43,511 bases of DNA from an uncultured Bacilli bacterium. Lineage in GTDB: Bacteria; Bacillota_I; Bacilli_A; RF39; UBA660. The stretch is from the NCBI GenBank assembly GCA_947598345.1, contig CANQFF010000001.1, forward strand, positions 1 through 43,511. The letters are read 5' to 3'. The notes under the pieces were generated by a model, which was not told where the DNA came from, made no database searches, and saw only the letters and a program-made list of their open reading frames with translations. The stretch's first letter is position 1, and each line of letters starts with the position of its first letter. This document shows positions 5,131 to 37,751 of this stretch, in pieces. Made by a program: the position numbers and the translations under genes.

Positions 5131-5265
5131 TTTGTATCCTCCCTTCGCCTATATCCAGTATAGACATGCTCCGCGTAAAAACCCGACATCCAAGTATATT
5201 TTATATAACAACTTAACCTGGCGTGTCAGCAACCTTACACATCAACGCAACGCCACACATACAGA

Positions 5266-5336: not shown

Positions 5337-7037
5337 TTAGTCAGCTATATCTGTTATAACTATATGTGTTGTTAAAGTATCTTCTCCACCTTCAATAATA
5401 GAAAATTGGAATATTCCTGTTTGAGCTAAACCATCTTGATAGCCACCACGCCTTAACCAAGGACTTTTAGGAGTTAAAAATGTATAATAATCTTGATACC
5501 ATCCTACATTTTGATTAGTAGGAGATAAAGTTTCACTCATTGCATGTCCGTAGCATATCCCACCACAAGCTTCTAAGAAATTTTTGCTAGGATCAGTTGG
5601 AGCTATATATAAATCATAATATTTTGGATCTGGCATATCCTCACCAACATACATAGAACCATCAGCTAGCATTCCACTAAAACCAGAATTATTGTTCTCA
5701 GTCTCACCAGATCTTGGTAATCCATCTGTTCCTGAAAGTACTCCCATAACTGCGTCCCATCCAGCTCCACTTACATCATATACACCATATATATTACCAG
5801 TTGTAGATGCTCCACCGCCACAACTTCCAGTTCCACTTCCTCTATCAGCTATATCATCATAAGGGCATTGTGGATCATTTTTTTGTTCCTGTGTTGCACC
5901 ATTACTAGCTCCTGAAATAAAATCACTATCCATATTTATATAGATTTCTTTATTTTTATATGTATACATTGAATTTCCATACTTTCCGTATTTACTCTGA
6001 GATAAATACGCCATCGCACCCCAATCAGAATTTTTAGCTACATGTGAATCTGCATTACCAATATAATCACCAAATGTTTTAGATGAATTAAAAAGTTCAC
6101 TTATAATTCCAAACATAATTTCATTTCCAGGTAAAATAGTAGGTTCAGGTAAAGAACCTGTTGTATCAAATTTCCCAATCCAAAATCCACTTAATTCTTT
6201 TCCTCCAAAGGTAAATGATGGATGAGTTCTCCATCCACTAGGAGTATTACCCGTATAAGTTGCAGTTCCAAATTCCTTAACATTACTACTTACAAATTTT
6301 ATATCAATCCCACCTGGTTGCGCTATATTAGGAACAGTTGCGCTTGCTGCTCTAAATCCATAAGTATTACCTATTGTATATGAAAACCTAGGAATCCATA
6401 CAAACATAGCCTTTACTTCAGTTTCTAAATCTAAACTTTTTCCAACTTCATCGCTTACTCCATCTTCTAATATAGCTGCATTTGCCCACTCTTGTTTCGT
6501 ATAATCATACCATTTATTCTGTCTATCTGCTATATCCCACTCTTCGTTATCTTCATCGTATACTATTGGAACCATTTTTCTATACAATTTAGGATCCGCA
6601 CCATTTAATTCAGGTGCTTTATACGAATCAACATATATATATTCATCACAATCCTTGTTATCCTTTATAGTATAACTATAACCATCATTATAATCAGCCT
6701 GAACACTTTTTAAATCAGTATCATCTTCAGATTCATCTGATAAAATTATTGGTCCCTTTAAATATCCTTCATCCACTAAATCTCTTATCGAAATACAATA
6801 ACTATTACCATCTTTTTTTTCAAAATCATCTTTATTTTTTTGTAAAAAATCATCAGCCGCACTAAATACTAATCTTTCATTAAAACTATATATATCATTA
6901 TTTTTATCCTTTATAAAGTCGACAATATTAGGAAAAACTAACGCTATTATAGCACTAATAATTATAATAACACCTAAAAGTTCTACCAAAGTAAAGCCAG
7001 AAGTTTTATTAATTTTTTTTAACACAATTTTCCTCAT
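5337..7037 (-). CDS. Type IV pilin-like (prepilin-type N-terminal cleavage/methylation) protein with a large C-terminal domain
   Basis: The N-terminus MRKIVLKKINKTSG|FTLVELLGVIIIISAIIALVF has Gly-1, Phe+1 and Glu+5 followed by a hydrophobic helix. The rest is about 520 aa, with blocks reminiscent of an FGE-sulfatase/C-lectin-like fold. Confidence 0.85.
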   Translation of the reverse strand: MRKIVLKKINKTSGFTLVELLGVIIIISAIIALVFPNIVDFIKDKNNDIYSFNERLVFSAADDFLQKNKDDFEKKDGNSYCISIRDLVDEGYLKGPIILSDESEDDTDLKSVQADYNDGYSYTIKDNKDCDEYIYVDSYKAPELNGADPKLYRKMVPIVYDEDNEEWDIADRQNKWYDYTKQEWANAAILEDGVSDEVGKSLDLETEVKAMFVWIPRFSYTIGNTYGFRAASATVPNIAQPGGIDIKFVSSNVKEFGTATYTGNTPSGWRTHPSFTFGGKELSGFWIGKFDTTGSLPEPTILPGNEIMFGIISELFNSSKTFGDYIGNADSHVAKNSDWGAMAYLSQSKYGKYGNSMYTYKNKEIYINMDSDFISGASNGATQEQKNDPQCPYDDIADRGSGTGSCGGGASTTGNIYGVYDVSGAGWDAVMGVLSGTDGLPRSGETENNNSGFSGMLADGSMYVGEDMPDPKYYDLYIAPTDPSKNFLEACGGICYGHAMSETLSPTNQNVGWYQDYYTFLTPKSPWLRRGGYQDGLAQTGIFQFSIIEGGEDTLTTHIVITDIAD

Positions 7038-9640: not shown

Positions 9641-9713
9641 TATTATTTGAAAAAACTCTAATATAATATATATATTTTGATATTATTTATTCATAATAAT
9701 ATTGGTGAAATAT

Positions 9714-10253
9714 ATGTACTATATTAATTATTTTTTTATATTTTCTATTTTTGGACACTTTATAGAAAGCTTTTTCTATTCAAATGGCGAAAGCGGAATA
9801 TTATTTGGATATTGGACTCCAATATATGGAATTGGCACTATAATAATATTATTTATAAATAAAAATATTAATAAACTAAAATCAAATAAAATTATTAAAG
9901 TAATTCTATTATTCTTATCGTGTTCTATTATATTATCATTAATAGAATCAATAGGAGGTTATTTATTAAAGTGGATTTTTAATATTGAATTATGGAATTA
10001 CTCTAATCATAAATTTAATATTGGAGATTATACATCATTAGAAATGGCCTTAATATGGGGATTAAGTAGCTTATTATTAATATATTACCTAAAACCAATA
10101 GTAGATAAGATTATTAAAAAAATTCCAAAAATAATTACATTAATACTTGTAATATTATTTATTGTTGATATAGCAGCTACAATAACATTTAAAAAGAGTT
10201 TTAGTATCAGTTTATCAACCACTAGTCAAATATCTAACACGAAGATAAAATAA
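9714..10253 (+). CDS. Polytopic membrane protein, resembles the 'putative ABC-transporter type IV' (PF06541-like) family
   Basis: FIFSIFGHFIESFFY ... GILFGYWTPIYGIGTIII start pattern and 4-5 predicted TM helices. ATG at 9714 preferred over TTG at 9702. Confidence 0.6.
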   Translation: MYYINYFFIFSIFGHFIESFFYSNGESGILFGYWTPIYGIGTIIILFINKNINKLKSNKIIKVILLFLSCSIILSLIESIGGYLLKWIFNIELWNYSNHKFNIGDYTSLEMALIWGLSSLLLIYYLKPIVDKIIKKIPKIITLILVILFIVDIAATITFKKSFSISLSTTSQISNTKIK

Positions 10254-10270
10254 TATATGGAGGGAATAAC

Positions 10271-10525
10271 ATGAAAAACATTTCAAGAATAGACATGGAA
10301 AATGGTTTTTATCTATTTAAATTAAGAAATGTACTTTCTAATAAAAATATTAGTATAAATAAAATTATGAGGGAAACTAATACAGATTTCAAAGTTATAA
10401 AAAGACTTATGACTGGTGAATTACTAAAAATAGATATAATCGTTTTAGCTCGCATATGTAATTATTTAAACTGTAACATAGAAGACTTAATAGAATATAA
10501 ACAAACAAAAGCCATTTCCAACTAA
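10271..10525 (+). CDS. Small XRE/Cro-C1-type helix-turn-helix transcriptional regulator
   Basis: 84 aa. ISINKIMRETNTDFKVIKRLMTGE (HTH) followed by LARICNYLNCNIEDLIEY, typical of short Cro/C1 HTH proteins. GGAGGG ribosome-binding site. Confidence 0.75.
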   Translation: MKNISRIDMENGFYLFKLRNVLSNKNISINKIMRETNTDFKVIKRLMTGELLKIDIIVLARICNYLNCNIEDLIEYKQTKAISN

Positions 10526-10604: not shown

Positions 10605-10636
10605 AAAACAAAAAAGAGATAACTTTCGTTATCTCC
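10605..10636 (-). terminator. Rho-independent terminator closing the fibre locus
   Basis: The minus strand reads GGAGATAAC-GAAA-GTTATCTC followed by TTTTTTGTTTT, 19 nt after the stop at 10655. Confidence 0.8.
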
Positions 10637-10654: not shown

Positions 10655-13129
10655 TTAATTATAACCTATATCCGAACCTTTTACAGTAATTACTGGTCTT
10701 ACTCCAACTCCTGCAGTTACAAAATAAGGTAAACCACTTGTTATTGAAAGACCATCGTGGTAACTAACCAAAGTAGAAGGTGGAGTCGTATCAAGCACCC
10801 AATATGTCCCCCTCGCATATTCTCCTGAAATCACATCATACGCTGTAAATGGCAACCTAGCTTTCAATTCTAAATAAGAAGCTGTAACAGTACCTGTATC
10901 CTCGTTCAATATGTTAGTTTTAAGACCCATTTGAACCGCTGGCATACTGTAAGAATATGAGAATCCTCCTTTTGAATTTAAATAGTTTATAGAAAACTTT
11001 TGAGAAGGTATATTTGTCCAATCCTTTGTTGCACTATATAAATCATCATATGCTTTAATTGGACCATCTTTTATAGCACCACTGGCAGCAAAAGCAGTAC
11101 TTGCACCACCTAAACTACCATTTTTACTAATATTGTCCTCTAATATCAAATCTATGTCAGCATCATCCGTTATTTTAGATTTAGATACTACGAAGAAGTG
11201 ATATGATTTTGTATCATTTACCTTACATATAAATTCTTCCCCCATTGGGGCAACATTACCTTTAAATGGTACAAAACCTTTTAAAGCTCCGGAACTTGTT
11301 TTGCTTGCAGTTTCTTGTGTTACTGCTTGGCAAATATATGTTTTTGGTGCTGCTGGTTGTACTGGTATTGATTCAATTTCTCCATCAACATAACTAAGTA
11401 ATGTATCGACATCGTTACTATCAATAACACCGTCATCATATACATCAGCATATTCTGTTTTTATATTGAGTTCATATGCATCACTAGAAGATTGACTAGG
11501 ATTTTGTTTAATGAATTCAACATATTCACTTAAATCTTCTACATCCTGTTCATCAATTACTGTATCATTATTAACATCACCTAATTTTCCAGAAGCTTGT
11601 AATACTGCTTTTGGAAGCTCAACCATCAATCTTACAAAATTTGTATCAGTATTTGATACTGAATTAACATAATTCATTAAATAGTCTTTACCCGCACCTC
11701 CAGTAGGATCAGGAAGAGAATTTTCTATACTCTTTACTCCATAATAATATTTATCTTCATAATCCGGTATACCCGGTAAAATCCATCCTGGATATCCAAA
11801 TGAATTTGGGCACACTATATCATACTGGCTAACATTTCCAGTTATCCATTCTTCTTTTTCACAAATCTCCTCTACATCCTCATAATATGGTATGCGGGCC
11901 CTCATGTTTTTATAGGTTAATATTGCACTATTAGTCATTCCAATACGAATATCACCAGTATCACTTGTTGAAACAGTAAACATAGTTTTATCCAACTTTC
12001 GATTAATTTTAATCCTTGGAAATGTTGGCCATCCTTGCGTAATTTTATCTATAATGGTAAAAACATTATCAGGAACTGTAGTTGATAAATTTGCTCCATA
12101 TTTAACTGATTCACCAACAGACTCTCCTTTTGTCAAAGACCCATTGCTATTTACACCTGCAATTAAGTTCAAAGAAACTGTATCATCACTTATAGATGCC
12201 ACTCTAAAATTATATTTATTAAATCCATCAACAGTACATACATATTCGTCACCTAATTGTATCTTCCCATCTGGCAATGTTCCATAAGCATCATATTGAT
12301 ATACACTATTAACCTTGAAAGATTTTACTAAATCTTTCTTCGCAGCTGGTACACATAGTCTATTAATCTCTACATCATCAGTTATATTATCTATACTTAT
12401 TTGTGTTACAGTTCCTGGATAATAATTATTAGTATAATCAGTCCCAGGTGTTAATAATTTATTCCCCATAGTTACTACATAATAAGGCATATTGGGAAGT
12501 TTAGTAGTATTATAACTACCTCCATCCGCAACTTCTACATCATCAAGACCAATCCATGGGCCAAACTTAATTGTATGAAATTTTCTAAAATCAACAGTTA
12601 AAGATAGTGGAAAAGATACATTAGATGAACTAAAACTACTAGCATCCTTATATTGAATAGTCAATTTAAATGTTTTTTTAGCTCCTAATTTACAATTACC
12701 GGCAGTATCACATATTTTTGTCCCTAAAGTATAATCACTTACCGAATATTTCAAGTTGTCAGGTAATCCCTTAAAAGCATTTATACCCATGGCAACATTT
12801 CCAAAATTCTCAACTGTTATATCAAATACAACAGTAGAAGTTGCTGTAGGTAGCGTTATACCTAAATTTAAAAGCCTACTAGTATAATGTATATCAGTTG
12901 ATATACCACCTGTAGAAGATGATGATGTAACTACATTAGTTACTCTTATGTCTTGAAGCTCATCTACATAACCGACCATACCAGTTACTGTTAATTTTTT
13001 ACCTAGCGCAGCATAAGCCACTGTTAGAAGAAAAATTGAAATGGACAATATAGCACAAATAGAGTATATATTAATACTCTTTCGCACTTTTTCATTAAAA
13101 CTATTTAGCCATCTTTTTAGCTTTCTCAT
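10655..13129 (-). CDS. Large secreted adhesin-like protein: TasA-like N-domain, two repeated modules, internal dockerin
   Basis: Signal/anchor LLTVAYA|ALGKKLTVTG resembles that of the small subunits. Two dockerin-type Ca-binding repeats at aa 517-584. Two similar modules of roughly 230 aa. ATGA overlap with the upstream gene. Confidence 0.85.
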   Translation of the reverse strand: MRKLKRWLNSFNEKVRKSINIYSICAILSISIFLLTVAYAALGKKLTVTGMVGYVDELQDIRVTNVVTSSSSTGGISTDIHYTSRLLNLGITLPTATSTVVFDITVENFGNVAMGINAFKGLPDNLKYSVSDYTLGTKICDTAGNCKLGAKKTFKLTIQYKDASSFSSSNVSFPLSLTVDFRKFHTIKFGPWIGLDDVEVADGGSYNTTKLPNMPYYVVTMGNKLLTPGTDYTNNYYPGTVTQISIDNITDDVEINRLCVPAAKKDLVKSFKVNSVYQYDAYGTLPDGKIQLGDEYVCTVDGFNKYNFRVASISDDTVSLNLIAGVNSNGSLTKGESVGESVKYGANLSTTVPDNVFTIIDKITQGWPTFPRIKINRKLDKTMFTVSTSDTGDIRIGMTNSAILTYKNMRARIPYYEDVEEICEKEEWITGNVSQYDIVCPNSFGYPGWILPGIPDYEDKYYYGVKSIENSLPDPTGGAGKDYLMNYVNSVSNTDTNFVRLMVELPKAVLQASGKLGDVNNDTVIDEQDVEDLSEYVEFIKQNPSQSSSDAYELNIKTEYADVYDDGVIDSNDVDTLLSYVDGEIESIPVQPAAPKTYICQAVTQETASKTSSGALKGFVPFKGNVAPMGEEFICKVNDTKSYHFFVVSKSKITDDADIDLILEDNISKNGSLGGASTAFAASGAIKDGPIKAYDDLYSATKDWTNIPSQKFSINYLNSKGGFSYSYSMPAVQMGLKTNILNEDTGTVTASYLELKARLPFTAYDVISGEYARGTYWVLDTTPPSTLVSYHDGLSITSGLPYFVTAGVGVRPVITVKGSDIGYN

Positions 13130-14220
13130 TTTTTAGCCTCTATATCTACTGCCTTAACTACATATAAATAAACTTGATCATTTTGTCTAATATAGAAATA
13201 ACATTTTTGATGTTTAGTAACAGTATAATACATAATAGGTAATTTTAAGTTATCTCTTACATCCAATAATTCCTCTATTTTATTTATCTTAATAACATTT
13301 GCTTCACTTATCTTTGGATCAGTTGAAGTTTCAACTATCAATCTATCATACTCAGCTAAAATTTTATTAACATATTTATCATAAGCAGATTTTTTTGTTT
13401 TAATAGAAGCAATTAAACCAAATGCCTTAGACAATGATACTAAAGATATACCAAAGAATACCAAAGATAATGCCACAAATGGATAATTATCTAATTTTAA
13501 ATCAGATTGTCTTGTAACATAACTAGAATTATTTATTTCATTATAATTTAAGTTAATATTAATTGCTCTTTGTGATAGTGGTATAACAATAGACATATCA
13601 TTTCCATCATTTAAATATACAGAATCACCATTAGCAGCAGTTTTATTAATCCTCAAAATTACAGTTAAATTACTTGCAGTATCGATACCATAATCAGTTT
13701 TAAAACTATTTGCTAAATTATTATAATAATCATAATCTATCGAAATACTTTCATTTATAGAAAATTTCTCAGAATCTTGAAGAGTATTACTCTTAGTATC
13801 CATAAGTGTATATTCTTTTTCAAAATAAGTATCTACTCCATTTTCACTAGTAATAGTTAATCTTCCAATAATACTATAATTATAATCTAATTTAAGCTTA
13901 TCTTCGATACCAAAAGCATAATTAAAATCAATATCAATATTCTTAATTAAACTAGCTATATATGCCATATTCTTTCCAAGATAATCTGTTTCATAATATT
14001 CATTTGGTTTTAAATATACTTTATAATCTAAATAACTATTTTCTTCATATTTTGTGCTTGTTTCTTCTAAATAAGATATAGAATGTTTAAAAGAAAGAAG
14101 ACATAATAACAAAGATAGTACAAATATAGAACAACTTAACACCAAACGAGTTGAAAATCCAACATACTTAGTTTTTTTATTTTTCTTACTCTTTTCTCCC
14201 TTTTCCATCTTTTTGTTCAT
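13126..14220 (-). CDS. Two-TM membrane protein of unknown function (possibly DUF5305-like)
   Basis: TM at aa 25-45, then a roughly 210-aa external domain, a second TM (YPFVALSLVFFGISLVSL), and a roughly 95-aa cytoplasmic tail. Translationally coupled to the adhesin gene. Confidence 0.8.
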   Translation of the reverse strand: MNKKMEKGEKSKKNKKTKYVGFSTRLVLSCSIFVLSLLLCLLSFKHSISYLEETSTKYEENSYLDYKVYLKPNEYYETDYLGKNMAYIASLIKNIDIDFNYAFGIEDKLKLDYNYSIIGRLTITSENGVDTYFEKEYTLMDTKSNTLQDSEKFSINESISIDYDYYNNLANSFKTDYGIDTASNLTVILRINKTAANGDSVYLNDGNDMSIVIPLSQRAININLNYNEINNSSYVTRQSDLKLDNYPFVALSLVFFGISLVSLSKAFGLIASIKTKKSAYDKYVNKILAEYDRLIVETSTDPKISEANVIKINKIEELLDVRDNLKLPIMYYTVTKHQKCYFYIRQNDQVYLYVVKAVDIEAKK

Positions 14221-14235
14221 TTTTCATTTTCCCTC

Positions 14236-15363
14236 CTATACTTCTTTTAACCACACAGTTGGTAACCCTATATACGGAATTTTAACACTTATAGTTCCAA
14301 CAATCATATCTTGTGTTACTGGATAGCCATCTTCTGCATTATTAGCATCCCCTTGTGTGTATAAAAAATACTCTCCTTTAACTTCAGATATTCTAATTAT
14401 ACGGTGTACAATCAAAACTCCATGATATTCGAATGCAATAATCTGACCTTCCTTTAACTTATCAACATTATTGTCAAACTTTTCTATAATAACTACATCA
14501 CCTTTATTAATAGTTGGAACCATACTTCCTGTTGCAATAGCAACTGCTTGATATTTAAAATATCCAGAAGTAAAATATACAAGAACTATTATAACAAATG
14601 CCGGTAATGCAAGTATTAAATAATCTTTTTTTGAATAATCCCTAGGAGTATATTCATCTTTTTCTTTTTGGAAATAACCATGTAGCTTATATAACAATAT
14701 AAATGGCACAATAAATTGAATTATTGATGAAAGATACTCGTTTGGATTAGGTACTATTGGTACCAAATATTGATATAATTCCATCACTAATAAATACAAT
14801 ATTGTTGGTTTATATCCGCTATTAATAGAAATGTAAGTACATAAAATATTAGTACTTATGGCTGGTAGTAATGTAAGTGCAACAAATATAAAAGACTCAT
14901 AACTATCAGCAAATTTATTATAATATATTGGATCAGATACATCCAAAAATATAAATAACAAAACTGTAATAAATATTAGAAACTTCTTACCTTCTGATTT
15001 TTTTAGCATCATATATCTTAAGCATTCTTTTAAAGGAATACTAAGCGCAATAGGTATTATAAATGTCTTAAATCCGCCAAATGTATAATAATTACTTGTC
15101 CTTGCAAATCCTATAAAAATACCTAAAAAATAATAAGCTAACAAAAAGAAAATCAAAAACATAGAAACTTCAAATATTACATCTTTAACAAATCTATTTC
15201 TATCCTTCTCAAATCCTAACAAAAATTTAAATAATACCAACATCGCAACCGAAAATATTATTATATTATATTCGCTTAATATATTTGATATAAAACTATT
15301 TAGTATAAGGATAGCAAACATCACACATTGAAATAAAACCAACCTCTTATAACTCTTTTTCAT
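14236..15363 (-). CDS. SipW-like (ER/archaeal-type S26) signal peptidase I fused to an N-terminal 8-TM domain
   Basis: The C-terminal ~110 aa carry GSMVPTINKGD (Ser), VHRII (His) and GDANNAEDG (Asp). They are preceded by roughly 250 aa of hydrophobic helices. Confidence 0.85.
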   Translation of the reverse strand: MKKSYKRLVLFQCVMFAILILNSFISNILSEYNIIIFSVAMLVLFKFLLGFEKDRNRFVKDVIFEVSMFLIFFLLAYYFLGIFIGFARTSNYYTFGGFKTFIIPIALSIPLKECLRYMMLKKSEGKKFLIFITVLLFIFLDVSDPIYYNKFADSYESFIFVALTLLPAISTNILCTYISINSGYKPTILYLLVMELYQYLVPIVPNPNEYLSSIIQFIVPFILLYKLHGYFQKEKDEYTPRDYSKKDYLILALPAFVIIVLVYFTSGYFKYQAVAIATGSMVPTINKGDVVIIEKFDNNVDKLKEGQIIAFEYHGVLIVHRIIRISEVKGEYFLYTQGDANNAEDGYPVTQDMIVGTISVKIPYIGLPTVWLKEV

Positions 15364-15393
15364 GTCTCCTCCTAAATAATTTTATTAAAACAT

Positions 15394-15435: not shown

Positions 15436-16074
15436 TTAATCTGCTGAACCGTAAGTCAATGTTGTTGCAGGTATTGTTACATCAAATGCACCGTCAGCTC
15501 TAGCTGAACCAGTTTTGTATTCGATTTTAATTGTAACTTTTTCAGTACCAGCTTTAGCTAAAGTATGACTTGTTATTGCAGAATTTGATACAGAACTTGC
15601 ACTTTTTGAAGTTGCAGAGTCTTTTCCAACTGTGAATGTTGCTTCTATACCTGCACAAGCTGCTGTAACTAAGGCGTCAGTTGCTTGAGATGATGTAGCT
15701 TTCTTACAAGTTAAATCACTAGTAGTAATTGCATTCAAATAAGCTATATATTCACCAGTATTTTTTACTTGAGCAGTACATGTTACTGAGTCACCTGGGT
15801 CAGTAAATGCTACCTTAATACCAGAAATCGTTGTATCAGCTACTGTTCCTGTTTCTGTAACTGATGCATTTCCTACTGTTGTATCACATTCTATTCCCTC
15901 AGTTTCATAAGTTGTATCAAATACAACTTTGAAGGCATCTCCACTTGGTGTTACTGTTGCATTTGCAGAAATTGTAAGTGTACTTGTGAAGGCTGCAAAA
16001 CCTATTCCTAATCCTACTACTGCAACAATTAACGCTACAACTGCTATTACTTTTGAATTTCTATCTCTTCCCAT
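15436..16074 (-). CDS. TasA/camelysin-like secreted fibre subunit, paralog C (212 aa)
   Basis: Signal ...GLGIGFA|AFTSTLTISANATVTP. The block PGDSVTCTAQVKNTGEY resembles TasA KPGDKLTKDFQFENNGSL. AGGTGG ribosome-binding site. Confidence 0.85.
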   Translation of the reverse strand: MGRDRNSKVIAVVALIVAVVGLGIGFAAFTSTLTISANATVTPSGDAFKVVFDTTYETEGIECDTTVGNASVTETGTVADTTISGIKVAFTDPGDSVTCTAQVKNTGEYIAYLNAITTSDLTCKKATSSQATDALVTAACAGIEATFTVGKDSATSKSASSVSNSAITSHTLAKAGTEKVTIKIEYKTGSARADGAFDVTIPATTLTYGSAD

Positions 16075-16134: not shown

Positions 16135-16779
16135 TTAACTTGCTGAATCTGCTGAACTATATGATAATGATGTTTGTGGTATTGTTACATCAAATGCACC
16201 ATCAGCTTGTTGTGATCCTGATTTATATTCAATTTTAATTGTAACTGTCTCTGAAGTACTTTTTGATAAAGTATGACCTTTTATACTAGATTTTGACTCT
16301 GAAGCTGAACTTTTTGAAGTTGCTGAATCACTACCAACTGTAAATGTTGCTTCTATACCTTTACAAGCCTCATTAACTAAACCTTCAGTTGCTTGAGACT
16401 CTGAAGCTTTCTGGCAAGATAAATTACCAGTAGTAATTGAATTCAAATATGCTTCGTATTCTCCGCTATTTTTTACTTGAGCAGTACATGTTACTGAATC
16501 ACCTGGTTTAGTAAATGCTACTTTAATACCAGTAATTGTTGTATCATCAACTGTTCCTGAACTTGAAACAGATGCACTTCCTGATGGGCTACAAGTTATA
16601 CCACTTGTTTCATATTCCTTATCAAATACTACTTTAAATGTATCATCACTTGGTGTTACTGTTGCACTTGATGAAATGGTAAGTGTGCTTGTGAAGGCTG
16701 CGAAACCTATTCCCAATCCTGCCACTGCAACAATTAATGCTAGTATTGCAATTACTTTTGAATTTTTTTCGTTTTCCAC
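16135..16779 (-). CDS. TasA/camelysin-like secreted fibre subunit, paralog B (214 aa)
   Basis: Roughly 70% identical by eye to paralog C. GTG start at 16777-16779 behind GAGGAGGTG. Confidence 0.85.
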   Translation of the reverse strand: MENEKNSKVIAILALIVAVAGLGIGFAAFTSTLTISSSATVTPSDDTFKVVFDKEYETSGITCSPSGSASVSSSGTVDDTTITGIKVAFTKPGDSVTCTAQVKNSGEYEAYLNSITTGNLSCQKASESQATEGLVNEACKGIEATFTVGSDSATSKSSASESKSSIKGHTLSKSTSETVTIKIEYKSGSQQADGAFDVTIPQTSLSYSSADSAS

Positions 16780-17012: not shown

Positions 17013-17693
17013 TTAAGTAGCAGAAGTAAAGTTAAAATTGATATCTCCAAATTCTACTTTAAATGGTCCATCTGCAAGATCATTACCCGTATATTGAAAA
17101 CCTATTTCAACAGTTCTATAATGACCTTTTGGTATTACTATTGATACAGCGTTGTTTGTTTTTGTCGTTGTCCAAATTACAGGCATATCACTATTATAAG
17201 TACGAGTTGTTACTATGACACTAATATTAGAACAAACTTTTTGTACTAATGAATCAGTTGTTCCAGCAAGTGCTGTACAAACTATAGGGCTAGATTTTCC
17301 TTTTACATTTTCATATACAACAGAAGCTAAAGTGGCATCGTATTGACCAGCATTTACAACATAAAAACTATATGCATCTGATTTTGTTTCAGGACCTGTA
17401 AAATACCAAGTTATTCCTGAAACAGTTGTTTCTGTTAAAGTCGCAGTAGTCCCTTTATTTGCATAATCTGGATTTCCTCCACCTGGTTGAACTGTACCTG
17501 TAGTAATTGAATCAGATTCTGTTGAAAATCCTACTTTGAAATTACTTTCATCTGGAGTTACTGTAGCATTTGCTGAAATAGTCAAAGTATTAGAAAAGGC
17601 TGCATAAGCGACAGATATAGCTACGACACAAAACGCTATTGTGCTCAAAAATATTACTTTTTGATTTTTATTTCTCCTTCTTGTTCGTCTCAT
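17013..17693 (-). CDS. TasA/camelysin-like secreted fibre subunit, paralog A (226 aa, divergent)
   Basis: Signal ...AISVAYA|AFSNTLTISANATVTP. Same overall layout as B and C, but the core is diverged. Confidence 0.85.
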   Translation of the reverse strand: MRRTRRRNKNQKVIFLSTIAFCVVAISVAYAAFSNTLTISANATVTPDESNFKVGFSTESDSITTGTVQPGGGNPDYANKGTTATLTETTVSGITWYFTGPETKSDAYSFYVVNAGQYDATLASVVYENVKGKSSPIVCTALAGTTDSLVQKVCSNISVIVTTRTYNSDMPVIWTTTKTNNAVSIVIPKGHYRTVEIGFQYTGNDLADGPFKVEFGDINFNFTSAT

Positions 17694-21080: not shown

Positions 21081-22406
21081 TTATTTTACTAAATTATTAC
21101 TTCTAATAGCTTGATCTGGAAACATTTCATTTATTGATTTAACACTTAAATCGCTGTTTATTTTTTCTGTATTAAAATAGTATCTTCCTACCATGTAACC
21201 ATATTCGTTATATATATCTTTATCATCACGAATATTTTTAGAATTTATATTTTCATATAGTCTAGCAACTATACTATTAAAATCTTTTGAATTAGATTCT
21301 ACATCTTCTGGTCTACTTTTTAAATAAAATATTAATTCATTATAATCTTCTTCATTTAGATTATTTTTTAATATACTTACTAAGTTAGTATCATCACCAC
21401 TAAATACAGTTTCCCATATTACTTTAGGACCAATAGTATTCATAAGTAACTCAAGATTTATTAAAGCAGGTATATATGAACCAAAAGGCTTATCTAAATA
21501 CTCATTTGCAGCAAGTTCTGCAACTGCTTCTTTCAAAAATGGATAACTTTTATCTGGAGATTGTAATAAATGTATAAACTCATGCTTTAATATTTCCTCG
21601 TACCCACCTATATTTTTTGCATTTATTACATTAGGAGCTATATCATTATAAAAACCATCTGTTGTTTGTGGATTTGGAATAAAAATCTCAGTTGGATCAT
21701 AAAGTCTTATTTTTATATTTTTTAATTTATATTTAATAAGATATTCCATATCGGTACCTTTATAATATTGAAATACATCTTCTAACAAATTTTCATTAGC
21801 AAAAATACTTTTCATATCATCTGGTAATTGTGAGGAATTTATTAAATTTATTCCTTCACTAACATCTATACAGTTTAAGTCTAAATTTAAATATTCTGAA
21901 ATAGAATATACTGGTTTAGCTAATGAATATTGTATATTATTTGTAAAATTTCCTTTAGTAAGTTGTGCACTAATTTCTGAAAAAATTACAAAATAACTCG
22001 TAATTGTAAGTAAAATTCCAAGAGAAATTTTTAAAATTTTTTTACCAATATGAAATTCTTTACTTTCACTATCTTTTTCTGATTTCTTACTGTAAAGTAT
22101 TAAATCTTCACCATTATTTTTAAAAAACATTGTAAAATCTTCAATATTGTTTTTTAAGTAATGTTTTAAATTATTTTTGTTATCCAAATATACTTTAAAA
22201 TCTAAATAATCTCCTATGTATGTACAATCACTATTAACTTTAACTAAATTATAGATAACATCAACTATATTTTTACCTATTGGATATAAATTATTCTCTT
22301 TTACACAAAAACCATAATAAATTAAATTATTATCCTGTTTTTTAAAATATAAATAATTACTCTCTTCTTTATCTTTTAAAATTGCACCTAACATAATATC
22401 ACTCAC
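21081..22406 (-). CDS. Membrane-anchored hypothetical protein with an HExxH zinc-protease-like motif
   Basis: One central TM (ILKISLGILLTITSYFVIFSEI). External domain contains HEFIHLLQ ... EAVAELAANEY. The GTG at 22406 overlaps the pth stop; the ATG at 22394 is an alternative start. Confidence 0.75.
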   Translation of the reverse strand: MSDIMLGAILKDKEESNYLYFKKQDNNLIYYGFCVKENNLYPIGKNIVDVIYNLVKVNSDCTYIGDYLDFKVYLDNKNNLKHYLKNNIEDFTMFFKNNGEDLILYSKKSEKDSESKEFHIGKKILKISLGILLTITSYFVIFSEISAQLTKGNFTNNIQYSLAKPVYSISEYLNLDLNCIDVSEGINLINSSQLPDDMKSIFANENLLEDVFQYYKGTDMEYLIKYKLKNIKIRLYDPTEIFIPNPQTTDGFYNDIAPNVINAKNIGGYEEILKHEFIHLLQSPDKSYPFLKEAVAELAANEYLDKPFGSYIPALINLELLMNTIGPKVIWETVFSGDDTNLVSILKNNLNEEDYNELIFYLKSRPEDVESNSKDFNSIVARLYENINSKNIRDDKDIYNEYGYMVGRYYFNTEKINSDLSVKSINEMFPDQAIRSNNLVK

Positions 22407-29858: not shown

Positions 29859-29870
29859 ATTATAGTTATA

Positions 29871-29950
29871 AAAAAAGCACACACATTTAGGGATTTTTAA
29901 GGCTGCTGTTTTCCAACTCTGACCTGGTTCAAATATAAATGTTGTGCAGT
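29871..29950 (-). ncRNA. ffs: Small (4.5S-type) signal recognition particle RNA
   Basis: The minus strand reads ACCAGGUCAGAGUUGGAAAACAGCAGCC, against E. coli 4.5S ACCAGGUCAGGUCCGGAAGGAAGCAGCC. A closing stem GCACAACAUUUA/UAAAUGUGUGUGC is followed by U6. Confidence 0.8.
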
Positions 29951-30064
29951 AATAATATATTATAAAAACATAAAAATATCAACAAATTAATATAATTTAT
30001 ACTCATTTTTTATAAAATTTGAATATTTTATACATTATTTTCTTTTAATATTGGTTTGTATTTA

Positions 30065-30367: not shown

Positions 30368-30399
30368 AAGAGTAATGTTTCACGTGAAACATTACTCTT
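30368..30399. other. parS site 7, doubling as the gyrA terminator-like hairpin
   Basis: Core at 30376-30391 within a 32-nt perfect palindrome. Its right arm contains the last two gyrA codons and the stop. A T-rich run follows on the minus strand. Confidence 0.8.
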
Positions 30400-32902
30400 C
30401 ATCAGTGCTTTGATCAACTAAATCTGTTTCTTCTTCATGATTAATGATTGCAATTGTACTTACTTTTTGATTATCTTTAAGATTAATTAATTTAACACCT
30501 TGTGTGACACGGCCTGTTGATGAAACTTGTTCTAAAGGTAATCTTATTATCATGCCACTATTTGTAATAATCATTAAATCTTCATCACCTGTTACTATCT
30601 TAAATGAAACAATATTACCATTTTTCTCAGTTACATTTAAAGCTTTTACACCTTTACTACCCCTATGAGTCATTCTGTACTGATCTATAGATGTTTTTTT
30701 ACCATAACCATTTTCAGTAACTACTAATACATTAGCATGCTCTGGAGAAATTTCCATGCCTACAGCAAATCCATCACCGACATCAATTCCTTTAACACCA
30801 GAAGCAGTTCTTCCCATGATTCTGATTTCTTTTTCATTAAATCTTATAATTCTACCATTTGAAGAAGCTATTAAAATTTCTGAATTTCCTTCAGTAATTT
30901 TAGCTGAAATCAATTCGTCGTTTTCTTTTAAAGTTATAGCTATCTTTCCATTTGTCCTAATATTTTCAAATTCTTCTATATTAGTTCTCTTTATTATACC
31001 ATTTTGTGTACAAAGTACAACATAAGCTGGTACATCTTTAGGAGTAGCTTTTAGCATTACATTTACTTTTTCATCTTTTTCTAATGGTAAAAGATTAATG
31101 ATTGGTAATCCTTTAGATTGTCTACTATATAAAGGAACTTCATATCCTTTCATTCTATAAACTTTTCCTTTATTAGTAAAGAATAAGATATAGTCGTGTG
31201 TAGTCATATAAAGTATATTTTCAACAAAATCCTCTTCATTTGTCGTCATACCTTTAATTCCAACGCCACCTCTATTTTGTAATTTATATGTATCACTTTC
31301 AACTCTTTTAATATAACCCTTATTTGTCAAAGTTACTACTAAATCATCTACAGGTATTAATGATTCATCATCTATATAATCAATTGCTGTCATGTCTATT
31401 GATGTTCTTCTTTCGTCAGAATATTTATTTTTTATTTCTAATAATTCTTTTTTGATAATTTCTAAAACTTTTTGTTCACTTTCTAATATTGATTTAAGTT
31501 CTTCAATTAATTTTAATAAATTATCTAATTCTTCTTCTATTTTCGCTCTTTCTAAGCCTGTTAATCTTCTTAATTTTAATTCTAGTATACTTTCTGATTG
31601 AATTTGGGTTAAATTAAATCTACTCATTAACTCATTCTTTGCAATCTCATCAGTATCAGATTCTCTAATTATCTTTATAACAGCATCTATATTATCAAGT
31701 GCGATTTTATATCCCTCTAAGATATGAACTCTTGCCTCTGATTTTTTTAAGTCAAATCTTGTTCTTCTTATAATTACTTCCTTCTGATGATCAATATATT
31801 TAGATATTATATCCTTTAGTGGTAAAGTTTTTGGAGTACCATTATCTAGCATCAAAAATATTATTCCATAATTTGTCTGGAAAGAGGTATGCTTATACAA
31901 ATTATTTAAAATTACCTGAGCATTTGCTTCCTTTTTTAATGTTATCGTTATCTTAATACCATCTTTTAAGTCTGTATGATAATCTGATATACCATCAATA
32001 ATTTTGTTATGAACTAATTCTGCAACCTTATTTTTTAAATCCATTGTATTAACGCCATAAGGTACTTCTGTAATTACAATTTGTGTGTGACCACCGTGTT
32101 CCTCAATTGATGCCCTACTTCTAACCGTAATTGAACCTCTACCAGTTTCATAAGCTTTTCTTATTCCAGAATTTCCTAATATTATTCCACCTGTTGGGAA
32201 ATCTGGACCTTTAATATATTGCATAAGACCTAAAGTATCAATATCATGATTATCAATATATGCAACGCATCCATCTATTACTTCTCCTAAATTATGTGGT
32301 GGGATATTAGTTGCCATTCCAACTGCAATTCCCATAGAACCGTTAACTAATACATTAGGAAATCTTGAAGGTAGTACTTTTGGTTCTTTACTAGTAGCAT
32401 CAAAATTATCTTCCATGTCAACAGTATCTTTATTTATATCTCTTAATAATTCAAGTGAAATTTTTGATAATCTAGCTTCTGTATAACGATAAGCAGCTGC
32501 TCCATCGCCTTCTATATTACCAAAGTTACCGTGTCCATCAACTAACATATATCTTTGATTGAAATCTTGAGCTAAACGAACCATTGCATCATAAATTGAA
32601 GAATCTCCATGTGGGTGATAATGTCCCATAACATATCCTACTGTTGTAGCTGATTTTTTATGGGGTTTATCAGGAGTATTTCCCTCCTCAAACATAGACC
32701 ATAAAATTCTTCTATGTACTGGCTTTAATCCATCTCTTAAATCTGGTATAGCTCTTGATGTTATAACACTCATTGAATAATCAAGAAATGAACTTCTTAC
32801 TTCACTTACTATATTGTTTTCAGATAAACTATCTCTTTCATGAAATTTATCTGAAAAATCTAATGTTTCATTATTATTTTCTAATTTATTTTCGTTATCC
32901 AT
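30392..32902 (-). CDS. gyrA: DNA gyrase subunit A
   Basis: 836 aa. Active-site block GAAAYRYTEARLSK, beta-pinwheel repeats, and an acidic C-terminus. Confidence 0.97.
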   Translation of the reverse strand: MDNENKLENNNETLDFSDKFHERDSLSENNIVSEVRSSFLDYSMSVITSRAIPDLRDGLKPVHRRILWSMFEEGNTPDKPHKKSATTVGYVMGHYHPHGDSSIYDAMVRLAQDFNQRYMLVDGHGNFGNIEGDGAAAYRYTEARLSKISLELLRDINKDTVDMEDNFDATSKEPKVLPSRFPNVLVNGSMGIAVGMATNIPPHNLGEVIDGCVAYIDNHDIDTLGLMQYIKGPDFPTGGIILGNSGIRKAYETGRGSITVRSRASIEEHGGHTQIVITEVPYGVNTMDLKNKVAELVHNKIIDGISDYHTDLKDGIKITITLKKEANAQVILNNLYKHTSFQTNYGIIFLMLDNGTPKTLPLKDIISKYIDHQKEVIIRRTRFDLKKSEARVHILEGYKIALDNIDAVIKIIRESDTDEIAKNELMSRFNLTQIQSESILELKLRRLTGLERAKIEEELDNLLKLIEELKSILESEQKVLEIIKKELLEIKNKYSDERRTSIDMTAIDYIDDESLIPVDDLVVTLTNKGYIKRVESDTYKLQNRGGVGIKGMTTNEEDFVENILYMTTHDYILFFTNKGKVYRMKGYEVPLYSRQSKGLPIINLLPLEKDEKVNVMLKATPKDVPAYVVLCTQNGIIKRTNIEEFENIRTNGKIAITLKENDELISAKITEGNSEILIASSNGRIIRFNEKEIRIMGRTASGVKGIDVGDGFAVGMEISPEHANVLVVTENGYGKKTSIDQYRMTHRGSKGVKALNVTEKNGNIVSFKIVTGDEDLMIITNSGMIIRLPLEQVSSTGRVTQGVKLINLKDNQKVSTIAIINHEEETDLVDQSTDEE

Positions 32903-32913
32903 GTTGTTACCTC

Positions 32914-34839
32914 CTAAATATCAAGATTTTCTACAAATGTTGCATTTTCCTCGATAAATTTTCTTCTTGGCTCTACTTCATCACCCATTAATTTTTCAAA
33001 TATTGCATCTGCAGCAACGCAATCGTCGACAGTTATTTTTCTTAGAACTCTTTTTTCTATATCCATAGTTGTCTCATTTAGTTCTTCTGCATCCATTTCT
33101 CCTAAACCTTTCATACGAGCAATTTCTGCTCTAGCACGAATATTTTCTGGTAAAGAGGCCAAATACTCATCTTTTTCTTCTTCTGTTAATACATATTTTC
33201 TTGTTTTTCCGTGCATTATTCTAAATAATGGTGGTTGAGCCGCATATATATGTCCTGCCTCAACTATTGGCTTAAAGAACCTATAAAATAATGTTAGTAA
33301 TAAAACTCTTATATGAGCACCATCTACATCGGCATCTGTCATGATTATTATTTTGTCATATCTTAGTTTATCTAAATTAAATTCATCGCCAATTCCTGTA
33401 CCAAATGCGGTTATTATAGCCCTTATCTCTTCATTGCTTAAAGCTCTATCTAATCTTGCCTTTTCAACATTTAAAATCTTACCTCTAAGTGGTAGAATTG
33501 CTTGTGTCATAGAATCTCTACCTTTTTTAGCACTTCCACCGGCAGAATCTCCCTCGACTATAAAAATCTCTGAAACTTTTGGATCTTTACTTTTACAATC
33601 TGATAACTTTCCAAAGAAATTACTTATTGCTAAATCACTTTTTCTAGTTATTTCTCTTGCCTTTTTGGCAGCATTTCTAGCTCTACAAGCTAACATAGCT
33701 TTTTCAACTATTGCCCTAGCTTCATCTGGATTTTCTAATAAAAATTGTTCAAATCCCTCACTGAAAACATTATCAGCTAATTTTCTTACTTCGCTATTAC
33801 CTAATCTTCCTTTTGTCTGTCCTTCAAACTGTGGATTAGGATGCTTACAAGAAATTATCATAGTCAAACCTTCTTTAACATCATCGCTTGTTAAAGACTC
33901 ATCTTTTTCTTTTAATATACCTGACTTTTTTGCATAATTATTAATTACTCTTGTTAAAGCTCTTCTAACACCTTCTTCGTGAGTACCACCATCGTGTGTA
34001 TTAATATTATTAACAAATGAATATATATTATCGTTATAACCATTAGTATATTGTAAAGCTACTTCAAACATTACATTTTCTTCGGAACCTTCTAAATGTA
34101 TAACATCTTCGTGTATTGGTGTTTTTTCTTGATTTATAAATTTTACATATTCAGAAATACCACCTTCATATACGAATGTCTCACCTGTTGTATCCTCTTC
34201 ATCTCTATCATCTCTTAAAGTTATTTTTAAACCTTTATTTAAAAAGGCTAACTCTCTTATTCTAACTTTAAGAGTATTATAATCATATATATCGGTATCA
34301 AAAATTTCAGAATCTGGTTTAAAAGTAACAGTTGTTCCTGTCCTATTAATGTCACACTCACCTATTACTTTTAAAGGCTCAACTGGATGTCCACCATCCT
34401 CAAATCTCATAAAATTAATATTACCGTTTTTATAAACTGTAACTTCTAACCATTTTGATAAAGCGTTTACTACACTAGCACCTACACCGTGCAAACCACC
34501 TGATACTTTGTAGCCTCCACCACCAAATTTACCACCCGCATGAAGTACTGTATAAACTGTCTCAACAGTACTTTTTTTAGTTTTAGGGTGTATATCTACT
34601 GGTATTCCTCTTCCATCATCTTTTACAGTTATTGAATTACCTTTATTTATAATAACTTCTATATTATTACAATAACCAGCTAAAGACTCATCGATTGAGT
34701 TATCTACTATTTCCCATACTAGATGGTGCAAACCTTTTACATCCGTTGTACCTATATACATACCTGGTCTTTTTCTAACTGCTTCAAGTCCCTCTAATAC
34801 TTGTATATCTGACGCATCATAATGATTTTCATTATTCAT
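32914..34839 (-). CDS. gyrB: DNA gyrase subunit B
   Basis: GHKL ATPase start [24 protein letters not shown]. Toprim motifs [10 protein letters not shown] and [12 protein letters not shown]. Confidence 0.97.
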
Positions 34840-36629: not shown

Positions 36630-37751
36630 TTAATATGTTCTTATCGGTAAAATTAATTGTGTTAAATCATCGTTATCCACATAGTTAACAATTATTGGTT
36701 TAATTTCTCCGTTAAATGATAATTCTATTTCTTCACTATCGAATGTCTTAATAGCATCCATCATATATTTTGAACTAAAAGATATTTTTATTTCAATATC
36801 AACATTTTTTGTTATTTTAATTTTTTCCTCTACATTACCTATTTCAGGAATATTAGAAGATATAATCATAATATCTTTTTTTGTTTCTAATTTAATAGTA
36901 TTTTTTTCTTCAGAATTTGTTAATAAAGATGCCCTATCAATTGCATTATAGAAATTTTCTAAATTAACTTTAACCTTTAATTCAAAATTATCTGGTATTA
37001 ATTTATTAGTATCTGGATAATTACCATTTATAAGTCTTGTCATAATAATTAGATTATCTATTTTAAATATTACCTTATTTGAAAATATATGTAATTCCAT
37101 TTTTTTATCTTCATCTGATATTAATTTAATTATTTCACTTAAATTCCTACTTGGAATAATAATATCAATATTGTTATCAACATTATTATCTAATAGTATT
37201 CTTTTTTTAGATAATCTATATGAATCAGTAGCTGTTACTTCCATTATATTATCGTTTATTTTAAAATTAATACCTGTTAAAACTGGTCTACTTTCTTGTT
37301 GAGATGTTGCAAAAATAGTTTGATTTATTGTAGTTTTAAAAACTCTTTGATCAAATATTAGTGGATTACCAGTAAATTCTAAATCAATTGCTGGAAAATC
37401 ACTAACACTATTACAATTTAATTTAAAAGATGATGATTCAGTTGTTATAAGAACTTGTGAATCAATTATTTCTTCTATATTAATAACTTCATTTGTTAAT
37501 TTTCTAACTATATCATATATATATCTTCCAGAAATTACAATCTCACCTAATTCATCTATAGAATCTATTTGATTTTCTGGAATAAAAGATTTTATAGCTA
37601 ATTCATTATCTGTACTTAATAAATATAATCCCTCTTTTGTTAATTCAAATTTTATACAATTTAAAATAGGGATTAAATTCTTTGTTGATATACCTCTTAT
37701 TACAAAATTTAAATGTTCTAATAAAACTTTTTGCTTTATTGTTAATTTCAT
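36630..37751 (-). CDS. dnaN: DNA polymerase III beta sliding clamp
   Basis: 373 aa, three-domain clamp. MKLTIKQKVLLEHLNFVIRGIS... dnaA-dnaN synteny. Confidence 0.96.
   Translation of the reverse strand: MKLTIKQKVLLEHLNFVIRGISTKNLIPILNCIKFELTKEGLYLLSTDNELAIKSFIPENQIDSIDELGEIVISGRYIYDIVRKLTNEVINIEEIIDSQVLITTESSSFKLNCNSVSDFPAIDLEFTGNPLIFDQRVFKTTINQTIFATSQQESRPVLTGINFKINDNIMEVTATDSYRLSKKRILLDNNVDNNIDIIIPSRNLSEIIKLISDEDKKMELHIFSNKVIFKIDNLIIMTRLINGNYPDTNKLIPDNFELKVKVNLENFYNAIDRASLLTNSEEKNTIKLETKKDIMIISSNIPEIGNVEEKIKITKNVDIEIKISFSSKYMMDAIKTFDSEEIELSFNGEIKPIIVNYVDNDDLTQLILPIRTY

Follow-up and report, generated by a model that had tools for sequence, protein, structure and literature searches.

Why should a signal peptidase that appears to serve a single fibre operon carry a large membrane domain in front of its catalytic part? 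The question was raised by a gene in a 43,511-nucleotide stretch of DNA from an uncultured Bacilli bacterium (contig CANQFF010000001.1 of assembly GCA_947598345.1), the whole of which is called the window here. An initial annotation, made from the letters of this DNA, had described the gene product as a SipW-like signal peptidase fused to a module of about eight transmembrane (TM) helices that it could not place, and had suggested that the module might be a platform for assembly or secretion, or a second catalytic unit. We found that the gene encodes 375 amino acids (aa), in which an eight-helix N-terminal domain (N-domain) is joined through an anchor helix to an S26 signal peptidase I domain, and that it lies in an operon with genes for small, leader-bearing proteins. 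With a probability of roughly 0.55, we propose that the product is a fibre-operon peptidase with a built-in, probably non-catalytic scaffold that resembles the CPBP-type bundle of CAAX proteases. The earlier interpretation was partly supported, in that its outline appeared to be right.

Layout of the peptidase and of its operon

The catalytic part is found at aa 249-372, which matched TIGR02228, the model for signal peptidase I of the endoplasmic reticulum (ER)/archaeal type, with 83.3 bits against a cut-off of 51.85, and the Pfam family Peptidase_S26 as well. Conservation was measured in 100 relatives that are 28-46% identical to the query, and 99 of them also matched TIGR02228. The motifs that had been read from the sequence, GSMVPT (Ser280), VHRII (His320) and GDANNAEDG (Asp339/Asp345), were all present, and among the relatives S280 was conserved in 96%, H320 in 96%, D339 in 99% and D345 in 94%. 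A catalytic Ser and His (not Lys) together with conserved Asp residues are the hallmarks of S26B peptidases. In a Foldseek search with a full-length AlphaFold2 (AF2) model, the C-terminal part matched human SEC11A/C (7p2p_A, 7p2q_A) and Streptococcus pyogenes SipA. Judged from its residues and its model, the peptidase domain looks active. The protein is of the SipW-like, ER/archaeal type, as had been claimed, but it is not SipW proper: it scored 63.1 bits on the SipW equivalog model NF046067, below the cut-off of 190, and the AF2 model has no C-terminal TM helix after the S26 domain.

In front of the catalytic part, the AF2 model, which was computed with 34 homologues, placed eight helices (residues 3-24, 32-48, 59-84, 95-123, 127-148, 154-182, 185-200 and 209-235), a charged cytoplasmic linker (236-247) and a ninth helix (248-267), which is followed by the beta-rich catalytic domain. 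The eight extra helices of the initial annotation were confirmed in this way, in addition to the anchor helix of the peptidase itself. Lys and Arg residues numbered 18 in the predicted inside loops and 2 in the outside loops, and this bias predicts a cytoplasmic N-terminus and a catalytic domain outside the cell. A strong ribosome-binding site, AGGAGGAG, lies 5' of the ATG, indicating that the start of the N-domain is the true start of a gene.

The N-domain was without a family in the databases that we searched. Residues 1-248 gave zero matches to Pfam and NCBIfam even at E<=10, and the 100 relatives, searched at full length under the same threshold, matched S26/S24 models only. Profiles of the N-domain run against the PDB sequences yielded only chance matches to transporters, e.g. 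MdfA and an Mrp subunit. Within the domain, R116 was kept in all 100 relatives, E113 in 99 and N172 in 94, along with several glycines and prolines (G81 in 97, G85 in 94, P202 in 95, P205 in 98 and P220 in 95); further conserved positions were K122 (87), position 141, which was acidic in 93, and F137 (79). The best of these values equal those of S280, H320 and D339. No Cys or His was conserved anywhere in the N-domain of these relatives. Among the polar residues that had looked conserved to the initial annotation, R116 was thus the one that held, while C114, C175 and H228 turned out to be variable. According to the model and the topology prediction, E113, R116 and N172 sit in the inner half of the membrane, in helices 4-6. 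On the outer side, conservation is highest in G81xxxG85F86, which spans the end of helix 3 and the loop between helices 3 and 4; in the AF2 model, this loop forms a small two-stranded sheet with the conserved outer loop P202xxP205.

The gene order on the minus strand is three paralogues (226, 214 and 212 aa), the peptidase, a DUF5305 gene and a gene for an 824-aa protein. A leader of the form ...G(F/Y)A-A(F/L)-x-x-x-L-T-(I/V)... occurred in the window only in the three small proteins and the 824-aa protein. This cassette is conserved. In 77 related loci with a full-length fused open reading frame (ORF), a small subunit lay directly upstream of the peptidase in 71 and DUF5305 directly downstream in 71, with both neighbours in place in 65, and a large homologue of the 824-aa protein was found in 37. 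The claim that the peptidase is dedicated to neighbouring TasA-like genes gained support from this cassette, and from the fact that the window holds no other S26 gene. The leaders of the subunits are strikingly uniform, with the consensus MEK(D/N)R..K(I/V)IA(I/V)(I/V)AL.VAV.GLS.GFAAFS.TLTI.SSA.V.P, and the stretch GFA↓AF(S/T)xTLTIxSSAxV (the arrow marks the presumed cut), together with a putative amphipathic donor strand, is conserved in 79 subunits. Cleavage likely occurs at GFA↓AF, as suggested by the -3/-1 rule and by analogy with the similar cleavage context of Bacillus subtilis TasA (...WA↓AFND there, ...FA↓AFS here).

The arrangement resembles that of the abpX loci. AbpX of Pyrodictium abyssi is a TasA-superfamily protein that polymerises by donor-strand complementation, and the archaeal and bacterial abpX loci are reported to contain genes for minor subunits, for tip proteins, for a DUF5305 protein termed "accessory" and for a dedicated signal peptidase I (bioRxiv 10.64898/2026.01.04.697558). 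On sequence evidence, our operon is likely an AbpX/TasA-type fibre cassette and the gene its polytopic dedicated peptidase, homologous to the published examples.

Fold of the N-terminal domain and readings of its role

Two independent AF2 models were built from different alignments, the full-length model described above and one of residues 1-248 alone. In blocks of 10 residues, the N-domain mostly had a mean predicted local distance difference test (pLDDT) score of ~80-95, falling to 64-67 over residues 81-100 and 201-210. When the models were compared with the PDB by Foldseek, the N-terminal part of the full-length model matched 6u0o_A over 252 aligned columns (target TM-score 0.57, probability 1.0), and the N-domain-only model matched the same chain with a TM-score of 0.56 in both normalisations (probability 0.96). 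For the latter model, 5a63_C (APH-1) came first by E-value with a TM-score of only 0.31, 4cad_C (Rce1) had a TM-score of 0.43, and three of the top four PDB matches belonged to the CPBP/APH-1 superfamily. Entry 6u0o is the SagB-SpdC complex of Staphylococcus aureus, in which SpdC is an eight-helix protein resembling the CAAX protease Rce1; from the chain length and the all-helical match, we infer that chain A is SpdC. A fold search with the N-terminal part alone had been proposed by the initial annotation, and it pointed to a CPBP-like fold outside any sequence family. In the models, the N-domain folds like the CPBP/type II CAAX-protease bundle, yet the searches by sequence did not place it in that family. 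A search for CPBP motifs in all ORFs of 80 related loci and of the window found none, and an artificial CPBP-like consensus had no match among the PDB sequences or plasmids.

We suggest that the operon would supply a fibre assembled by donor-strand complementation; beside the peptidase, it encodes three subunit paralogues, DUF5305 as a putative accessory protein and a large protein that resembles a tip or adhesin. The outer S26 domain would cut the leaders of the subunits, most likely at the site given above, and expose the N-terminal donor strand. The N-domain would be a divergent CPBP-like bundle that has lost the catalytic histidines and that scaffolds the single-pass peptidase by packing against its anchor helix, while the conserved outer loop between helices 3 and 4 would dock the catalytic domain. 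The polar cluster of E113, R116 and N172 in the inner leaflet probably binds the leader of the substrate within the membrane. Such binding would set the specificity or the timing of cleavage and could in this way dedicate the peptidase to the fibre proteins. The peptidase may have DUF5305 as an additional subunit.

The fused protein would then be a covalent version of two complexes of S. aureus, SagB-SpdC and SpbR-SpsB. In the first, the TM helix of SagB packs on TM3 of SpdC and its ectodomain on the TM3-TM4 loop, which gives nine helices in total; SpdC is non-catalytic and orients SagB. In the second, SpbR is a CAAX-like pseudo-protease with degenerate motifs, which binds both the TM helix and the ectodomain of SpsB and lowers SpsB activity. 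Our protein shares with both the arrangement of an eight-helix CAAX-protease-like bundle, an anchor helix and an outside catalytic domain (8+1). It further shares with SpbR-SpsB the partner, a signal peptidase I, and with SagB-SpdC the region of docking (TM3-TM4), in that the element at helices 3-4 is the best conserved one on the outside here; SpdC is also the best structural match of the N-domain. However, SpbR and SpdC are separate polypeptides and are detectable as CPBP proteins by sequence, whereas our parts are fused and carry no CPBP signal at the sequence level, and SpsB is a bacterial P-type (Ser-Lys) housekeeping peptidase whereas ours is ER-type and dedicated. While SpbR inhibits SpsB, the N-domain here could inhibit, activate or target its peptidase. 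The degenerate motif 2 of SpbR is FIYLD and the N-domain has the string FIFLD, a likeness by letters alone.

Several results weigh against such a scaffold. The Foldseek E-values of the N-domain were weak, ranging from 0.03 to 1.1 (0.4-1.1 for the top matches of the N-domain-only model), and four of the five models in the N-domain-only run were poor, with a pLDDT of 42-47. None of the 100 diverse members matched PF02517 or the CPBP/exosortase models of NCBIfam at E<=10. The CPBP motifs (EExxxR, FxxxH and HxxxN/D) were not reproduced; the domain merely echoes them with E113xxR116, which is spaced differently, F137xxxD141 and N172, and it has no conserved His. Over the linker and the anchor helix, the confidence of the full-length model fell to a pLDDT of 43-56, so the contact between the N-domain and the peptidase is one that we infer rather than see. 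Moreover, E113 and R116 are as conserved as the catalytic residues, whereas the corresponding residues of SpbR are dispensable. Conservation as near to absolute as this suggests that the polar cluster does something essential, possibly catalysis. Finally, the similarity of the subunits to AbpX/TasA is weak (8-18 bits), comes largely from the leader and the donor strand, and is accompanied by no match among the PDB sequences.

The N-domain could instead be a second, active intramembrane protease derived from CPBP, with Glu113 and Asp141/Asn172 as its catalytic set. It would clear the leader that is left in the membrane after the S26 cut, like signal-peptide peptidase, or trim the MEKxR n-region. 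We consider this unlikely, while placing it ahead of the other alternatives. E113 and R116 are almost absolutely conserved across relatives that have diverged widely, but their spacing differs from that of EExxxR, and neither CPBP histidine (of FxxxH or HxxxN/D) is kept in a domain that lacks any conserved His or Cys. The polar residues lie in the inner membrane half of helices 4-6, on the side where the CPBP active sites are found, but D141 is without a counterpart in the P. abyssi protein. The resemblance of the fold to Rce1 and the conserved n-region of the substrate leaders would suit a protease; on the other hand, there was no CPBP match at the sequence level, and SpdC, SpbR and LnsB, the bacterial CPBP-like proteins known to pair with single-pass enzymes, are non-catalytic. 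In a more elaborate form, which we find improbable, the fusion would be a two-protease machine: the S26 domain cuts the leader, and a CPBP descendant without histidines, using Glu113 with Asp141/Asn172, destroys or releases it, so that removal and clearance of the leader are coupled. If two proteases were indeed present, the more than 1000 clusters described below would represent a new family of intramembrane proteases.

A further reading, also improbable, is that the N-domain works as a platform for assembly or anchoring and has no relation to CPBP function. Such a platform would keep the newly cut subunits or the fibre base at the membrane, possibly jointly with DUF5305, and couple cleavage to donor-strand polymerisation or to attachment to a cell perhaps lacking a thick wall. 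The conserved outer loops G81xxxG85F86 and P202xxP205, with their small sheet in the model, might serve for this, but they are very short (5-10 residues) and offer little surface for a fibre. The strict co-occurrence with the subunits, DUF5305 and the large tip-like protein agrees with a platform, and many hosts are labelled Mycoplasma, Tenericutes or Mycoplasmatota-related metagenome-assembled genomes (MAGs); yet the best conserved residues lie inside the membrane, and nothing directly indicates binding of the mature subunits. No sortase and no LPXTG/SLH anchor stood out in the cassette, the flanks of the loci not having been screened for them, and anchoring factors are reported to be missing from some abpX loci (bioRxiv 10.64898/2026.01.04.697558).

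An exosortase/archaeosortase-like transpeptidase, which would fasten fibre proteins to a lipid or the surface of the cell, was rejected as highly improbable: about eight helices and an invariant Arg would agree with it, and the initial annotation had pointed to Cys and His residues, but no Cys or His of the N-domain is conserved, none of the 100 members matched an exosortase/archaeosortase hidden Markov model of NCBIfam or Pfam at E<=10, and the substrates carry an N-terminal leader and not a C-terminal sorting signal.

Extent of the fusion and its relation to known fibre loci

When the N-domain alone was used as the query, 654 proteins were retrieved, nearly all of them 373-377 aa long and equipped with S26/S24 domains. 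A profile search of 1.84 billion cluster representatives gave 1034 clusters at E<=1e-3 and 604 at E<=1e-10. Among the best 150 clusters, 111 had an S26 domain and the other 39 were shorter; representatives of 812 and 458 aa look like chimeric read-throughs. A survey at the species level, with each GTDB species represented by a single genome, confirmed 93 matches; of the 80 loci retained, 77 contained a full-length fused ORF. The survey of genome contigs used a narrow alignment (A1) and is therefore biased towards close relatives. The hosts were almost all gut MAGs, labelled Bacilli bacterium, Mycoplasma sp. (e.g. CAG:877), Tenericutes or Candidatus Faecisoma (Mycoplasmatota incertae sedis). 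A second homology search with high-GC members (A7) returned 32 proteins only and did not reach the archaea.

A single split form was seen. On one metagenome contig (L083:4525-5678), the fusion is divided into an ORF of 250 aa for the N-domain and one of 123 aa for the S26 part, with 30 nucleotides between them, in a family that otherwise has 386 aa. The S26 piece has no anchor helix of its own, which marks this as a broken copy, most likely caused by a frameshift or a stop. Another short match to the N-domain, in locus L084, is a fragment cut by the contig end. The initial annotation had asked whether the extension also stands alone beside tasA-like genes, and neither of the two short forms traced was a stand-alone N-domain gene. 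That the long ORF is an artefact, in which a sequencing or assembly error merged a membrane protein gene with a short SipW gene, is refuted by the comparative data and can practically be discounted: the contig with the two ORFs 30 nucleotides apart would speak for it, but hundreds of independent assemblies yield the same ORF of 373-390 aa, the split is an exception whose S26 piece lacks an anchor, and a strong ribosome-binding site precedes the N-domain while no separately starting S26 ORF is present among the ORFs of at least 50 aa.

Far from being the isolated oddity that the initial annotation implied, the long form is standard in its lineage. That annotation had also allowed that its case would fall if this architecture were the common and already described one, and this is largely so, since the form is not only standard but has been mentioned in print. 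The peptidase of the AbpX locus has been called "structurally distinct, possessing ten transmembrane helices" (Sleutel et al., bioRxiv 10.64898/2026.01.04.697558). The polytopic peptidase of AbpX/TasA-type loci is thus already known, with its extra helices left unanalysed; the preprint offers neither a fold nor a function for them. What is new here is the extent of the family (1034 clusters, including a contig of Candidatus Nomurabacteria), the identity of the residues that are really conserved, and the link to CPBP-type scaffolds at the level of the fold. Because the architecture is in print and the type of operon is known, the advance is incremental.

Our comparison with the published AbpX-linked peptidases covers the Pyrodictium examples only. 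The P. abyssi peptidase beside abpX (WP_338249487.1) has 380 aa, against 375 here, and the same layout, with a polytopic region, an anchor helix and a TIGR02228-type S26 domain in the same order. Its segments YGLVVGF, GREMVRS and FPLIPAG are colinear with G81xxxG85F86, E113xxR116 and P202xxP205, respectively, so that GLxxGF, ExxR and PxxP recur in the same order. However, the similarity of the N-domain sequences is at the edge of detection. The alignment of the P. abyssi N-domain to the query family had an hhalign E-value of 0.048. On the 100-sequence N-domain profile, the P. abyssi peptidase scored 7.4 bits, above all of 5000 composition-preserving shuffles; its score on a 26-sequence profile (A5) was reached by 5-6 of 2500 shuffles, and the narrowest profile (A1) gave no match.

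The subunits showed a comparable picture. In the AbpX locus, a subunit of ~215 aa likewise adjoins the peptidase, the leader and donor strand being TYA↓QWSETLSLSATIS in AbpX and GFA↓AFTSTLTISANATV here, and DUF5305 adjoins in most of these loci as well. A profile of 79 subunits produced the scores of 8-18 bits on five AbpX homologues, and none of 2000 shuffles reached the full-length scores; the aligned region takes in the leader and the donor strand and extends as far as a PGxxVxxxFxxxNxG motif and the first Cys. The mature part was less clearly similar, its real score being reached by 7-64 of 2000 shuffles, and hhalign aligned only the leader and the donor strand. When the subunit profile was run against the PDB sequences, neither a TasA nor an AbpX entry was found. 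One weak match to Peptidase_M73 was obtained among the subunits. Position 2 of the mature protein is aromatic (Phe), as in AbpX. In contrast, the acidic residue at position 4 of the donor strand, which is tied to the Ca-dependent assembly of AbpX (bioRxiv 10.64898/2026.01.04.697558), is absent here, so that assembly may be triggered differently. The hosts also differ, being Thermoproteota, Clostridia and Chloroflexota in the published loci and low-GC gut Bacilli or Mycoplasmatota-like MAGs in ours. Two cysteines (C123 and C140 in the numbering of the 212-aa protein) are invariant in the fibre subunits of the window and of the 80 loci (L001-L080), which also share a conserved ADGDF motif near the C-terminus; AbpX likewise has a disulfide pair.

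Other fibre systems use dedicated peptidases of different build. SipW of B. subtilis, encoded in tapA-sipW-tasA, is also an ER/archaeal-type Ser-His S26 peptidase in the operon of its fibre substrate, but it has ~190 aa, two TM helices and no polytopic domain, against 375 aa and nine helices here, and its partner is TapA rather than DUF5305. In the haloarchaeal tafi fibres, the cluster-encoded peptidase TafD is genetically required for the processing of the major subunit, and DUF5305 (TafG) is encoded alongside. TafD/TafG and the DUF5305-fused signal peptidases share with our locus a dedicated S26 peptidase and DUF5305 that are encoded with donor-strand subunits. However, TafD has four TM helices and a C-terminal immunoglobulin-like domain instead of an N-terminal eight-helix bundle, and its substrates follow the twin-arginine translocation (Tat) pathway.

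The TasA-superfamily fibres of bacteria and archaea have one processing enzyme in common, the dedicated signal peptidase. The domain described here is large, conserved and present in more than 1000 clusters, many of them from uncultured Bacilli of the human and animal gut, and it has no entry in the domain databases. If it is a CPBP-like scaffold, the fusion would serve as a natural "Rosetta stone" in favour of CPBP-like proteins and signal peptidases acting as a unit, and it would link SpbR-SpsB and SagB-SpdC of S. aureus to the biogenesis of fibres. It would also provide a simple system, made of one polypeptide with its substrates adjoining, for studying how a scaffold controls the choice of substrate. 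At the same time, the locus points to a probable system of surface fibres in a gut lineage of which little is known.

Features of the operon and its genomic setting

The coordinates of the gene, its operon and the surrounding features are listed in Table 1.

Table 1. Positions of the features in the window and the basis of their assignment.
Feature	Position	Strand	Basis
Whole peptidase gene	14236..15363	-	ORF list; TIGR02228 and PF10502 matches; 654 homologues of similar length
Ribosome-binding site AGGAGGAG	15366..15373	-	2 nt 5' of ATG; read from sequence
N-terminal eight-helix membrane domain, aa 1-247	14623..15363	-	No family match; AF2 helices; Foldseek
Glu113-Cys-Leu-Arg116 codons, E-x-x-R motif in helix 4	15016..15027	-	Comparison of 100 relatives
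Ninth helix, aa 248-267, own anchor of the peptidase	14563..14622	-	AF2 secondary structure; positive-inside count
S26 catalytic domain, aa 268-375, predicted extracellular	14236..14562	-	Family matches; conservation; Foldseek
Fibre subunit paralogue 1, 212 aa, presumed substrate, leader ...GLGIGFA↓AFTSTLTISANATV	15436..16074	-	Alignment
Fibre subunit paralogue 2, 214 aa, 72% identical to paralogue 1	16135..16779	-	Alignment
Fibre subunit paralogue 3, 226 aa, divergent (36%), probably minor, same leader	17013..17693	-	
DUF5305 membrane protein, 364 aa, putative accessory subunit of the peptidase	13126..14220	-	PF17231, 59.8 bits
824-aa protein, leader VAYAALGKKLTVTG, presumed tip, adhesin or anchor subunit	10655..13129	-	Leader alignment; domain scan
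Terminator-like hairpin and T-run closing the operon	10615..10636	-	
Cro/C1-type helix-turn-helix (HTH) protein (HTH_26)	10271..10525	+	
CmpB-like membrane protein	9702..10253	+	
566-aa protein	5337..7037	-	No Pfam match at 1e-5
441-aa protein	21081..22406	-	No Pfam match at 1e-5
gyrB/gyrA-sized ORFs	32914..34839; 30392..32902	-	
dnaN	36630..37751	-	
dnaA	37881..39233	-	
mnmE	41890..43239	+	
Bacterial small signal recognition particle (SRP) RNA	29861..29957	-	Rfam, above gathering score, 56.9 bits
S10-Clostridia ribosomal-protein leader	5145..5253	-	Rfam, above gathering score, 37.8 bits

Residues 516-580 of the 824-aa protein contain a dockerin type I-like Ca-binding repeat (26 bits), with no obvious cellulosome context. 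It may represent an EF-hand-like pair of Ca-binding loops within a fibre tip or adhesin. A promoter scan gave matches at the level of shuffled sequence, and we make no claim of a promoter for the operon. The HTH and CmpB-like genes converge on the end of the operon, and a terminator-like hairpin lies on each side. The HTH protein could regulate the fibre operon. Its gene was not seen beside the cassette in the related loci, and neither was the CmpB-like ORF, except in L067, where it lies ~4 kb upstream on the opposite strand.

Some related contigs showed other arrangements. In a MAG of Candidatus Nomurabacteria, a member of the Candidate Phyla Radiation (CPR) (L084:5364-6833, JAISDN010000024.1), a subunit of ~197-199 aa with the leader GVAFAALSTTLNITGTAKV is followed by the fused polytopic peptidase, and a JGI metagenome contig (L085:3946-5725) has the same subunit-peptidase pair adjoining murT/gatD. 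This suggests either that the cassette has spread across phyla or that a contig was mis-binned. Another contig (L023:63-10233) bears two peptidase-DUF5305 pairs, with two large tip-like genes between them on the opposite strand.

The window covers the oriC region of a low-GC chromosome, in which dnaA, dnaN, gyrBA, mfd, pth and the SRP RNA are encoded, and the cumulative GC skew turns at ~39.5 kb. The 441-aa and 566-aa proteins are encoded among the housekeeping genes. The fibre operon is located ~20 kb from oriC, right after mfd and pth.

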